Assembly (NCBI GenBank): GCA_017937305.1
Contig: JAGBDV010000001.1
Location: 66,237-130,236, forward strand
Length of the DNA stretch: 64,000 bases
Direction: 5' to 3'
From: Bacilli bacterium
GTDB lineage: Bacteria > Bacillota_I > Bacilli_A > ML615J-28 > CAG-313
A model generated the notes under the pieces. The model had not been told where the DNA came from. It did no database searches and was given only the letters and a program-made list of their open reading frames with translations. Positions 21,795 through 23,318 of the stretch are shown in pieces. A program made the translations under genes and the position numbers. Within the stretch, counting starts at the first letter, position 1; each line of letters starts with the position of its first letter.

Positions 21795-23318
21795 CTATTT
21801 GTAAGCATTATAAAGAATTGTTAATAAATCCTTGTTTTCTTGAGTAAATTCTTCACTAATTTCTTTTTGTGTATATTCGCTTAAAATTTCGATAAAACTT
21901 ATTTGTCTATCAGACATATAATATGTTTCTCCATCAATTTGAACATAACATGCAGCAACAAAATCTTCAGCAAAGAATGATTTAGGAACATTAGTAACAA
22001 GTACAGCAAATGTATAATTATTAGCTAAAACTTCCTCTTTAGTAAATGAAACAGATTTAACTGCACTGTTATTTGCTTCATAAGCATCAACTAAAGTAGT
22101 ACTTCCTAAGTCTTTAACTTTTGCAACAACAACACCAAATTCTACAGAAGAGCCTTCAGTAATTAAACCTTCATATAATTCTTGTTCTATTGTAGCACCA
22201 AATCTAACACTTGCATTAGTTATAGAATATTCATCTGAAGAACCAACAAATTTATATAAAGAAATAGCTTTTTGTCCAGTGTAAGACGATGATTTATAAT
22301 ATCTAAAACGGTATTGTCCACTATCACTATTATATCTTAAATACGCACCACCAGAAAGTAAATTAACTGTTCCATCATTGTTAAATGAAATTGTATTAGT
22401 ATATGGACTAGTAGTAGATGACTTTAATCCGTTAGCATCAGAAGTTTGACCTATATAATATCCACTTTTAGATTTTACATAACCATTACTATCAATAGTA
22501 AAAATTGAAGCATCTAATTTCGCATCATATGCTATTTTATTATTTTCAATATTTACAGGAACATTATTACTTACAGCGTCCAATGTTGTTAAAGAACCAT
22601 CAAAAGCCACATTAAATTCCTCGCAAACAATTAAATAATTAGCATCATAATCAATAGGAGTAGACGTAACTTTTTCAAAGTATTGTTCAGAATTTGATTC
22701 ATTTACAGCCCAAGATAAGTTTAAGCTAGATAAAGTATCTAACGCACTAAACTTTTCTTGTATTGAAATCTCACTTTGTTGCTTAGTATAATCAATTGTG
22801 AATGATTCGCAATATAGAGAATTTGCTGTAGCAGCAATTATAATTGTTACTGTTTCCCCACTTTTTATTACATAATCACTATTTGACATAGCAGGTTTAA
22901 TATCTACGTATGCTGTAGACCAAGCTCCATTCCAACTTGAAGCATTAAAATTTGCAGTGGCAATAGAAGATAAAGTAGTTGAACCCGCTTTAACAGAAAG
23001 ATTTCCAGCACCTTTGCTTGTGTTTGACTTCATAGATAATGTTATACCAGTAATAATGTATCCATCATAACCAGATAAAGTCAATGTCATTGAGTTACCA
23101 GATGTTAATTGGCATTTACTAGTATATGTACTAGAATACTCAACAGATGAATTAGCAGGAACAGTTCCTGAAACAGAAACAGCCGATGTAGATGTAACTG
23201 TATAAGTCGCAGTTCCTTCAACAATTTCCGCATTAACAACTTGTTTTACACTTACACATGCTAATAAACATACAAATATAATTAAACATGATATTGTTCT
23301 TTGTAAGAATGTTTTCAT
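21795..23318 (-). CDS. Secreted multi-domain beta protein with a C-terminal domain shared with 58261-60669
   Basis: Signal peptide (VNA|E); Ser/Thr-rich beta domains; C-terminal VRFGATI..FGVVV..NVPKS..YVQIDG. Confidence 0.8.
   Translation of the reverse strand: MKTFLQRTISCLIIFVCLLACVSVKQVVNAEIVEGTATYTVTSTSAVSVSGTVPANSSVEYSSTYTSKCQLTSGNSMTLTLSGYDGYIITGITLSMKSNTSKGAGNLSVKAGSTTLSSIATANFNASSWNGAWSTAYVDIKPAMSNSDYVIKSGETVTIIIAATANSLYCESFTIDYTKQQSEISIQEKFSALDTLSSLNLSWAVNESNSEQYFEKVTSTPIDYDANYLIVCEEFNVAFDGSLTTLDAVSNNVPVNIENNKIAYDAKLDASIFTIDSNGYVKSKSGYYIGQTSDANGLKSSTTSPYTNTISFNNDGTVNLLSGGAYLRYNSDSGQYRFRYYKSSSYTGQKAISLYKFVGSSDEYSITNASVRFGATIEQELYEGLITEGSSVEFGVVVAKVKDLGSTTLVDAYEANNSAVKSVSFTKEEVLANNYTFAVLVTNVPKSFFAEDFVAACYVQIDGETYYMSDRQISFIEILSEYTQKEISEEFTQENKDLLTILYNAYK

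Follow-up and report, generated by a model that had tools for sequence, protein, structure and literature searches.

A terminal domain of secreted proteins paired with leader-core peptide genes in uncultured gut Bacilli

Although no Pfam or NCBIfam model and no paper found describes the domain and the peptides reported here, several known systems share parts of their logic. In the paeninodin-type lasso peptide clusters of Firmicutes, a stand-alone B1/RRE protein and an HPr-kinase homologue act on the linear precursor, and the phosphorylation of RRE-bound precursor peptides by HPr-kinase homologues is established chemistry for paeninodin (PMC8498205). Cohesin-dockerin and similar modular systems of non-covalent surface assembly pair a beta-sandwich receptor module on or near the cell surface with a short cognate partner and join them to variable cargo. 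The SynChlorMet cassette and HPr-rel-A systems (NCBIfam TIGR04248/04249, TIGR04352), which are themselves of unknown function, combine a PqqD-family chaperone with an HprK-related kinase, and FnIII/Ig-like and CBM-type domains provide the general sandwich fold.

The locus studied here lies in a stretch of 64,000 nucleotides, called the window, of the Bacilli bacterium assembly GCA_017937305.1 (contig JAGBDV010000001.1, positions 66,237 to 130,236). It encodes a previously unmodelled domain of ~130 residues, predicted to be a beta-sandwich, at the free end of large secreted proteins, and beside it tiny genes for leader-plus-core peptides. Like the lasso precursors, these peptides have a leader with Y-x-x-P-x-I/L and a Thr about 16 residues after the Tyr (Y5 and P8 are invariant and I10 and I12 near-invariant in the peptide alignment), and the genome has a stand-alone PqqD-type RRE, whose best NCBIfam match is lasso_PqqD_Bac (39.8 bits, below its cut-off of 80), as well as an HPr-kinase-like enzyme. 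Some relatives also carry a ~390-aa gene that by sequence appearance may be a nucleotidyltransferase, although no search was made for it. Membership in the lasso class is nevertheless rejected. The B2 transglutaminase-like leader protease (PF13471) was not found in any of six genomes (the present one, G000, and the relatives G006, G010, G039, G213 and G158), and the Asn-synthetase-like cyclase (PF00733) was not found in G000, G006 or G213, the other genomes giving only short PP-loop-type hits on contigs or at positions away from their peptide/domain loci. An S26-like Ser peptidase is present instead, there is no ABC exporter and no conserved C-terminal Ser, and the precursors are dispersed and coupled to secreted-protein genes.

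In comparison with cohesin-dockerin, there is no sequence or close fold match: Pfam scans of the two secreted proteins and the peptides at E up to 1 gave no cohesin (PF00963) or dockerin (PF00404) hit, although one Foldseek hit of the domain is a cohesin-like module (2jh2, E 0.019). The partner is a separate ~20-residue peptide, or a lipoprotein tail, rather than a Ca-binding dockerin fused to cargo; it is the receptor and not the ligand that is fused to the cargo; and a RiPP-like maturation cassette is involved. The best kinase hit is ScmC of the SynChlorMet cassette (E 2.2e-7), and one relative has a radical SAM/SPASM gene beside a second kinase copy, but scores are far below the curated cut-offs (30.5 against 125 bits) and the window has no radical SAM partner. 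Foldseek against the PDB gave no close structural relative of the domain, the best hits being growth-hormone receptor FnIII, monobodies, DUF3823 and CBM21, with TM-scores of only 0.25-0.5 and E at or above 1e-3, and the conserved C-terminal two-helix hairpin is not part of those folds. Pfam and NCBIfam scans of the domain, the peptides and the lipoprotein gave nothing relevant, and full-text literature searches found no description of this gene arrangement.

One domain at opposite ends of two secreted proteins

The region 21795-22220 (-) comprises the last ~142 codons of the gene for a 507-aa protein, P0001 (Table 1). The earlier note had reported that the C-terminus of P0001 and the N-terminus of an 802-aa protein, P0002, are copies of one domain and that each is adjacent to a peptide gene; this observation is confirmed. 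Pairwise BLASTP between the proteins is weak (E 0.019 over 67 aa), a jackhmmer search restricted to the genome does not join them, and a homologue search with the P0001 C-terminus alone found only 6 close relatives. A deep profile, built from 157 domain copies found in 1.84 billion proteins, does hit P0001 residues 368-488 at 26.6 bits, which against all 14,870 six-frame ORFs of the genome corresponds to E 3.7e-6, with the next ORF at 0.14, and hhalign of shallow alignments gives E 7.9e-5. Structure prediction, which had been named in advance as able to overturn the homology, upheld it: the AlphaFold models of both regions show the same succession of strands followed by two C-terminal helices.

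No lipobox, C-terminal TM segment or LPXTG motif was seen when the sequences of P0001 and P0002 were read. P0002 has no Cys in its signal peptide, whereas the Cys of P0001 is absent in the homologue P0007 and shifted in others, all of which end with VNA|E, so that a lipobox in P0001 was rejected. Sortase (PF04203) is absent from G000 and from 5 of 6 relatives, that is, from 6 of 7 carriers tested, and PBP is absent in the relative G039 and in the genus g75; some carriers lack a cell wall. The cargo joined to the domain varies and includes lectin-like modules, Listeria-Bacteroides repeats plus a beta-helix-like region, LRR and GHL10-like modules.

Table 1. Features of the window (positions are those of the 64,000-nucleotide stretch)
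Position	Strand	Feature	Basis
21795..22232	-	C-terminal copy of the domain (P0001 residues 363-507): beta-sandwich with short inserted helices, followed by two C-terminal helices (predicted)	Deep HMM; AlphaFold pLDDT 80-94, strands 363-376, 392-400, 421-426, 436-441, 452-461, 464-467, 471-474, helices 475-483, 493-506
21795..23318	-	P0001, 507-aa secreted protein: signal peptide, CBM-like sandwich (33-180), beta-trefoil lectin-like domain (210-358), docking domain (docking inferred)	Translation; AlphaFold mean pLDDT 85; Foldseek hits to PPL lectin 9kl2 (prob 1.0) and the CBM13 of xylanase 1isv
21656..21781	-	pepA, 41-aa peptide MNKQYENPTIEIVEFDTENILTASGTFGGVETGDKELDFWE (YxxP leader plus acidic/aromatic core), 13 nt after the P0001 stop	Peptide HMM E 2.5e-16; orthologous arrangement in relatives G003 (locus L054) and G037 (locus L050)
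21469..21651	-	60-aa lipoprotein (lipobox LVSC, acidic spacer, tail GWLPWV), last gene of the operon	Same tail (GWLPWL) on YxxP-leader peptides in G006 (contig C8) and G009 (contig C307); absent from the orthologous operons
21440..21468	-	Intrinsic terminator (GAGCTCaattGAGCTC followed by a T run) ending the operon	Read directly from the sequence
23409..23505	-	Purine riboswitch aptamer upstream of P0001	Rfam RF00167, 53.7 bits against a gathering score of 37, E 1.5e-7
60680..60811	-	pepB, 43-aa peptide MNKNYETPSIEIIEYETEIETANSSTIFDYPWKDSNDDSGFFE, ending 10 nt before the P0002 start	Peptide HMM E 1.5e-22
60196..60594	-	N-terminal copy of the domain (P0002 residues ~26-158), directly after the signal peptide	Deep HMM E 4.7e-50; 970 representative proteins carry it, nearly always at residues ~28-160; AlphaFold model of a close homologue pLDDT >90
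58261..60669	-	P0002, 802-aa secreted protein: signal peptide, the domain, Listeria-Bacteroides repeats, beta-helix-like C-terminal part	Translation; Pfam Flg_new E 3.8e-8; beta-helix-like reading from the sequence only, not tested
16864..18254	+	Trans-acting maturation cassette (role inferred): PqqD-type RRE (16864-17139), S26-like Ser peptidase (17132-17545), HPr-kinase-like protein (17556-18254)	Pfam PqqD E 9.5e-16; NCBIfam lasso_PqqD, sigpep_I and ScmC/HprK_rel_A, all below curated cut-offs; gene trio conserved in relatives

Pairing of the domain with peptide genes and co-occurrence with a PqqD/S26/HPr-kinase cassette

The genome has exactly three genes with this domain and three intact YxxP peptide genes, paired one to one, the third pair (pepC and a protein hitting the profile at E 4.2e-38) being located on another contig, C18. 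The chance that three peptides all land within 200 nt of the three domain-gene ends is about 6e-10. For both pepA and pepB, the upstream TAG stop lies inside a TAGGAGG ribosome-binding site, that of pepB within the site of P0002, and the spacers are 0-15 nt or the genes overlap; transcription and co-transcription were not examined. A search for related loci with a single domain sequence returned only 6 loci, from MAGs already seen.

Adjacency of the domain to YxxP peptides and GWLPW lipopeptides had been proposed beforehand as the test of the pairing, and for the peptides it extends well beyond the window. Of 60 peptide genes inspected in relatives, 36 lie directly upstream of a gene with the domain at its N-terminus and eight lie directly downstream of a gene with the domain at its extreme C-terminus, so that the peptide gene abuts the domain-coding end in 44 of 60. 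In 106 genomes of the order, peptide and domain are each found in 22, of which 18 are shared (Fisher 5e-13), and 34 of 59 domain hits have a same-strand peptide hit within 2 kb, typically ending ~100 nt before the domain, with 7 more found on inspection. About 9 of the 59 domain genes have an intact upstream region without a peptide gene; one gene (locus L049) has the peptide upstream but the domain far from the N-terminus, and some peptides, for example the Cys-rich tandem pairs and a few others, have no domain neighbour. The GWLPWV lipoprotein, in contrast, is lineage-specific and not a constant part of the operon.

Peptide, domain and cassette co-occur across the 106 genomes (p about 1e-10 to 1e-13, not corrected for phylogeny), with the kinase present in 19 of 22 peptide-positive genomes (2e-11) and often 2-5 kb away. 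Whether precursor and modifying enzymes are clustered, as is general for RRE-dependent RiPPs, receives a divided answer, since in the window the cassette is 3.5 kb from pepA but 42 kb from pepB, and on another contig from pepC, whereas in g75 and in the relatives G088 and G066 all parts lie within a few kb. In the wall-less relatives PqqD was the exception, not being found in the stretch examined. In g75, which is wall-less and whose genomes are complete, one cluster holds a lipoprotein ending in DPNW..Y, a peptide, a protein with the domain at its N-terminus, a kinase::peptidase fusion and a second domain protein. The DPNW lipoproteins give weak hits to the domain and flank the peptide genes.

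Possible roles of the peptide and its domain

The earlier note had proposed that the domain binds the matured peptide, the lipopeptide tail or both and retains varied cargo on the cell surface, as an anchoring system rather than an antibiotic RiPP, and this interpretation is partly supported. What the analysis demonstrates is a new, mobile module, an Ig/FnIII-like beta-sandwich followed by a two-helix hairpin in the predicted models, which usually forms the mature N-terminus right after a type-I signal peptide and sometimes the extreme C-terminus of secreted multi-domain proteins, and which is paired with, and translationally coupled to, a micro-gene for a ~40-residue peptide with a conserved lasso-like leader (M-K-K-x-Y-x-x-P-x-I-E-I-I-x-F ... 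T-x-S) and a variable acidic/aromatic core. The maturation steps, in contrast, are inferred: the leader would be recognised by the stand-alone PqqD-type RRE, the HPr-kinase-like enzyme may phosphorylate a Ser/Thr of the core, and the S26-like peptidase would remove the leader at the small-residue T-A-G-G-S type junction; modification and cleavage of the peptide were not measured.

That the released core then binds its cognate domain, by adding a beta-strand (GSVVID) and inserting its aromatic tail, is inferred from gene order and from one AlphaFold model of a natural read-through fusion from locus L003, in which the domain has pLDDT >90, the peptide core (residues 21-40) 84-85 with a strand at 24-29, the leader 54-61 and the signal peptide ~50. 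Domain and peptide would therefore act as receptor and ligand, comparable in logic to cohesin and dockerin. Binding is plausible but not shown: docking is read only from local pLDDT and secondary structure in one artificial single-chain construct with only 8 paired rows, of which coordinates, contacts and PAE were not inspected. It is also not shown that the peptide reaches the outside, and how it would leave the cell is unknown. The peptides have no signal peptide, and no exporter linked to them was found; the ABC genes downstream of P0002, considered as candidates, are EcfA/EcfA'/EcfT followed by truA, an ECF module. As the S26-like peptidase has no TM segment in its sequence as read, maturation looks cytoplasmic while the domain is extracellular. 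Co-variation of core type with domain subtype could simply reflect duplication of the two genes together, for which reason no distance-correlation test was run. Overall, this explanation is preferred only tentatively.

More speculatively, lipoproteins with related aromatic tails (GWLPWV here, DPNW..Y in relatives) would use the same groove and tether the otherwise anchor-less cargo to the membrane, whereas the free peptides would cap, stabilise or compete at that site. Lipoproteins with similar aromatic tails are part of the same clusters, and the GWLPW tail is found both on a lipoprotein and on YxxP peptides, but it is not shown that the system anchors rather than stabilises, caps or regulates. 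In its most far-reaching form, in which RiPP-like peptides matured by the PqqD/S26-peptidase/HPr-kinase cassette are the cognate extracellular ligands of a new terminal receptor domain and form, together with the lipoproteins, a modular non-covalent surface-display system that would replace sortase and cell-wall anchoring in sortase-less and even wall-less gut Bacilli, this reading is not excluded but doubtful.

Two alternatives are unlikely, to a similar degree, but survive. In the first, the peptide is a structural or folding partner and not an anchor, its core supplying a strand or plug that the terminal domain needs to fold or stay soluble (trans strand complementation or a capping subunit), with the gene order ensuring that the two are made together and the lipoproteins being unrelated cargo of the same family. 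The predicted core strand, the tight translational coupling, the position of the peptide next to the domain end and the lack of a membrane tether on the free peptides agree with it. However, some domain genes do without a peptide, the same topology problem arises with a cytoplasmic peptide and a Sec-exported unfolded domain, and neither the cassette nor the GWLPW tail on a lipoprotein is explained. In the second, the peptides are ordinary RiPP natural products or signals, linear and possibly phosphorylated, whose genes merely hitch-hike in front of highly expressed surface-protein genes, and the domain has another ligand, such as a glycan or a host surface. The lasso-like leader, the co-occurring cassette, the family members that sit next to radical SAM/SPASM genes or are Cys-rich without a secreted neighbour, and the generic Ig/FnIII or CBM-like fold favour this view. 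Against it, up to 15 precursor genes per genome are scattered, each coupled to a different secreted protein, the peptide switches sides with the domain, which hitch-hiking on expression does not predict, no exporter or immunity genes were seen, and the core is predicted as a confident strand next to the domain.

Much less likely, the micro-gene is only a translational-coupling or regulatory upstream ORF whose product has no function of its own, as the stop codons embedded in ribosome-binding sites and the short or overlapping spacers could suggest; however, the amino-acid sequence is conserved at both ends across families and orders, peptides also lie downstream of genes, where they cannot regulate them, they co-occur with a peptide-maturation cassette, and one decayed copy (on contig C11) lies away from any domain gene. 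A chance or generic beta-sandwich similarity between the two protein ends, to which the weak BLASTP and the failed jackhmmer link could point, is very improbable given the genome-wide profile score, seven other proteins followed by a peptide that also hit the profile at their extreme C-terminus, and the matching secondary-structure order including the two terminal helices.

Even without the mechanism, three unannotated families are defined, namely the domain, the micro-peptide and the DPNW-tail lipoprotein, together with a clear genomic rule for finding them. The module is compact, with a ~130-aa domain and a ~20-aa peptide, and occurs in many cognate variants per genome, which is the kind of orthogonal tag/receptor set that protein engineering looks for. 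If the pairing reflects binding, ribosomal leader-dependent peptides would have a role outside antibiotics and signalling, as dedicated subunits or docking keys of surface proteins, and it would also explain how small-genome gut Bacilli, which mostly lack sortase and sometimes lack a wall, keep very large adhesin-like proteins on the cell.

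Gene arrangement and the shared terminal domain

The 64-kb stretch has a GC content of 27% and belongs to a genome of 1.43 Mb in 25 contigs, whose nearest relatives are MAGs labelled 'Bacilli bacterium' (goat caecum) and 'Erysipelotrichaceae bacterium'. The region of interest comprises the last ~142 codons of a 507-aa ORF, P0001, which has a type-I signal peptide ending in VNA|E. A 41-codon gene, pepA, starts 13 nt after the stop of P0001, and a 60-codon lipoprotein gene whose product ends in GWLPWV starts 4 nt after pepA and is followed by a terminator. About 39 kb away, a 43-codon gene, pepB, ends 10 nt before the 802-aa ORF P0002, and in both places the upstream TAG stop lies inside a TAGGAGG ribosome-binding site. 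Just upstream of P0001 lies a bona fide purine riboswitch (Rfam, 53.7 bits against a gathering score of 37), which controls an operon encoding a lectin-like secreted protein, a peptide and a lipoprotein, an unusual member of such a regulon.

Coordinates of the features discussed (window positions unless a contig or locus is named)
Feature	Position	Strand
P0001, 507-aa ORF	21795-23318	minus
Beta-trefoil module of P0001 (residues ~210-358)	22250-22680	minus
Purine riboswitch upstream of P0001	23409-23505	minus
Operon of PqqD-type RRE, S26-like Ser peptidase and HPr-kinase-like protein	16864-18254	
Spore genes yabP and yabQ	14359-15053	
Two ABC ATPases, CbiQ-family (EcfT-type) gene and truA, downstream of P0002	53265-56824	minus
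Decayed fourth peptide gene, same genome, contig C11	14995-15060	
DPNW-tail lipoprotein, same genome, contig C3	28540-28884	
Kinase-peptidase fusion, genus g75, locus L100	4036-5139	
Kinase-peptidase fusion, genus g75, locus L101	3557-4666	

The earlier note had claimed that the C-terminus of P0001 and the N-terminus of P0002 are the same domain, and this observation is confirmed. Although pairwise BLASTP is marginal (E 0.019) and jackhmmer within the genome does not connect the two regions, a deeper profile search does link them. Nine N-terminal copies from relatives were aligned and searched against 1.84 billion representative proteins, which gave 970 hits at E ≤ 1e-3 and 297 at E ≤ 1e-10, nearly all of them at residues ~28-160, directly after a signal peptide, and a few internal, C-terminal or in tandem. 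A profile built from 157 of these copies hits P0001 residues 368-488 at 26.6 bits. Against all 14,870 six-frame ORFs of the genome only three ORFs pass, namely P0002 (E 4.7e-50), a 1632-aa protein on contig C18 (E 4.2e-38) and P0001 (E 3.7e-6), while the next ORF scores 0.14. An hhalign comparison of two shallow alignments gives E 7.9e-5.

The AlphaFold models agree. The N-terminal copy has eight strands and then two helices, at pLDDT >90, and P0001 residues 363-507 show the same order of strands with short helical insertions and the same β6-β7-β8-αA-αB ending, at pLDDT 80-94. In P0001 the first hairpin (GxxIR-TDGNNG-LRW) is collapsed to ASVRF. Foldseek finds only generic Ig/FnIII, CBM and cohesin-like sandwiches (E ≥ 1e-3, TM 0.25-0.5), and neither a Pfam or NCBIfam model, nor a paper in the literature searched, nor a close PDB fold matches the system.

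Pairing of domain genes with micro-peptide genes

A motif scan of the genome finds three intact paralogous peptides and one decayed copy, which has an internal stop (MKESF, the stop, then MPTIEIINFSTAITT...) and is not next to any domain gene. The third intact peptide lies 14 nt upstream of the C18 protein, so that three domain genes and three peptide genes are adjacent one to one, with a probability by chance of about 6e-10. In the 106 genomes of the order that were examined, the peptide HMM and the domain HMM each hit 22 genomes, 18 of them shared (Fisher 5e-13). Of 59 domain hits, 34 have a same-strand peptide hit within 2 kb, typically ending ~100 nt before the domain, that is, one signal peptide away. 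Reading the upstream DNA of the rest revealed seven more divergent or decayed peptides, whereas about nine genes truly have none.

The arrangement is also polar. Every protein that is followed by a peptide gene carries the domain at its extreme C-terminus; besides P0001 itself, these are the synteny orthologue in the relative G003, a 660-aa protein in G006, a 612-aa protein in G037, and proteins in the relatives G069, G094 and G001 (two). Among 60 real peptide genes seen, 36 lie directly upstream of a gene with an N-terminal domain, 8 lie directly downstream of a gene with a C-terminal domain, and 3 lie upstream of a gene with the domain elsewhere, while the rest have no neighbour or a truncated one. 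Two of the three cases with the domain elsewhere are 381-aa proteins made of three tandem copies. The rule stated in the earlier note, that the peptide gene abuts the end of the gene encoding the domain, therefore generalises, with one clear exception (locus L049).

At loci L055-L057, L059 and L063-L065 of G006 and G009, there are at least six copies per genome of a second peptide class (...NDEWYDSNVDMGGWI), each of which overlaps the start of a >700-aa LRR (BspA-like) secreted protein whose N-terminus is a very divergent copy of the domain (E ~1e-4). Tandem Cys-rich YxxP-leader peptides (for example ...FCTSVSFECTSTPMLCYNQMENLI) with no secreted-protein neighbour are found at L058 (contig C1 of G088) and L062 (contig C159 of G087), and they look like conventional thioether-type RiPP precursors that share the same leader. 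At L071 (contig C13 of G039) and L072 (contig C3 of G090), a radical SAM/SPASM gene, a second HPrK-like gene and an S26-like peptidase are followed by a YxxP peptide (...LVCIEELE) and then by a ~710-aa secreted protein, the examined portion of which has no detectable copy of the domain.

Associated cassette, lipoproteins and cargo

A separate operon of the window contains three genes, encoding a PqqD-type RRE (Pfam E 9.5e-16), an S26-like Ser peptidase (weak signal-peptidase-I hits and a GTSMLP motif) and an HPr-kinase-like protein (best hits ScmC and HprK_rel_A, below their cut-offs). The trio is conserved in relatives. The kinase is present in 19 of 22 peptide-positive and 18 of 22 domain-positive genomes (p 2e-11 and 6e-10, respectively), and it often lies 2-5 kb from a peptide/domain pair. 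A class-wide sample of 399 genomes finds the domain only in this order, in one genus (g75) of another family, and in one weak case. In g75 a single cluster carries, in order, a lipoprotein ending in FNDPNWSGIY, a YxxP peptide, a 670-aa N-domain protein, a kinase fused to the S26-like peptidase, and a GHL10-like protein with an internal domain; PqqD was not found in the stretch of g75 sequence examined. The fusion, a single polypeptide of 367-369 aa, is Rosetta-stone evidence that the kinase and the peptidase act together.

Lipoproteins ending in DPNW(S/T)xxY form a family often encoded beside the kinase or the peptide genes (loci L006, L028, L030, L031, L040, L049 and L099-L101). DPNW..Y lipoproteins flank these genes in G039, G084, G066, G001, G002 and G029, some of them give weak hits to the domain profile, and the genome studied here has one such lipoprotein on contig C3. 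The GWLPW tail of the 60-aa lipoprotein of the window occurs on YxxP-leader peptides in G006 and G009, at the equivalent position between a C-domain gene and an N-domain gene. The orthologous operons in G003 and G037 lack the lipoprotein.

The cargo of P0001 is a CBM-like sandwich plus a beta-trefoil (Foldseek hit to the PPL lectin 9kl2, prob 1.0). The trefoil is 60-70% identical to a module found in hundreds of proteins from Bacteroidota and Clostridia that also carry CHB_HEX_C, Fn3_assoc, Big_3 or Endonuclease_1 domains, and it is far more conserved than the rest of the protein, which suggests recent spread of the module. The fusion of relatives of this module to Endonuclease_1 hints at nucleic-acid or purine scavenging. 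P0002 carries Listeria-Bacteroides repeats and, judged from its sequence without further testing, a beta-helix-like region, and other cargo in relatives includes LRR and GHL10-like modules.

Predicted docking, the question of export and proposed surface retention

In several loci the peptide and the downstream gene are in frame, and reading the stop codon as Gly gives natural fusions of peptide, spacer, signal peptide and domain. Eight such fusions were aligned with 19 unpaired domain rows and 12 unpaired peptide rows, and the G006 fusion was folded. The domain (residues 70-205) has pLDDT >90 and the peptide core (residues 21-40, with a strand at 24-29, GSVVID) has 84-85, whereas the leader (residues 1-20) has 54-61 and the linker and signal peptide (residues 41-70) have ~50. 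A confident strand flanked by disordered segments suggests that it pairs with the sandwich, but since coordinates and PAE were not inspected, this is indirect evidence from one construct. Binding is plausible but not shown.

The earlier note had proposed that the domain binds the matured peptide and/or the lipopeptide tail and retains varied cargo on the cell surface, and this interpretation is partly supported. What the analysis shows is a new terminal domain family, a new micro-peptide family, their polar gene pairing, and their co-occurrence with an RRE/peptidase/kinase cassette and with aromatic-tail lipoproteins. That the cassette matures the peptides is inferred by analogy with the paeninodin RRE and HPr-kinase (PMC8498205), and that the core binds the domain is likewise an inference, while the use of the same site by lipoprotein tails to anchor the cargo is speculative. 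The main weakness is topology, because the peptides lack an export signal and no exporter is linked to them. The genes downstream of P0002, two ABC ATPases, a CbiQ-family (EcfT-type) gene and truA, are read as the ECF transporter module and are ordinary housekeeping genes, not a peptide exporter. The swap of a YxxP leader for a lipoprotein signal peptide on the same GWLPW tail hints that both routes end outside the cell, but that is only a hint. This is not a lasso system; the B2 protease was not found in any of the six genomes tested, and the cyclase was not found in the genome studied here, G006 or G213, the other genomes giving only short PP-loop-type hits away from their peptide/domain loci.

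No LPXTG motif, TM tail or conserved lipobox is present in the cargo proteins, and sortase is absent from the genome studied here and from five of six relatives tested. PBP transpeptidase is present in this genome and in G006 but absent in both G039 and all four g75 genomes, all of these being 94-99% complete, so part of this order and class is wall-less, whereas the genus of the genome studied here keeps PBPs and the spore genes yabP and yabQ. The system therefore also works in wall-less cells, where a Sec-secreted protein without an anchor would be lost.
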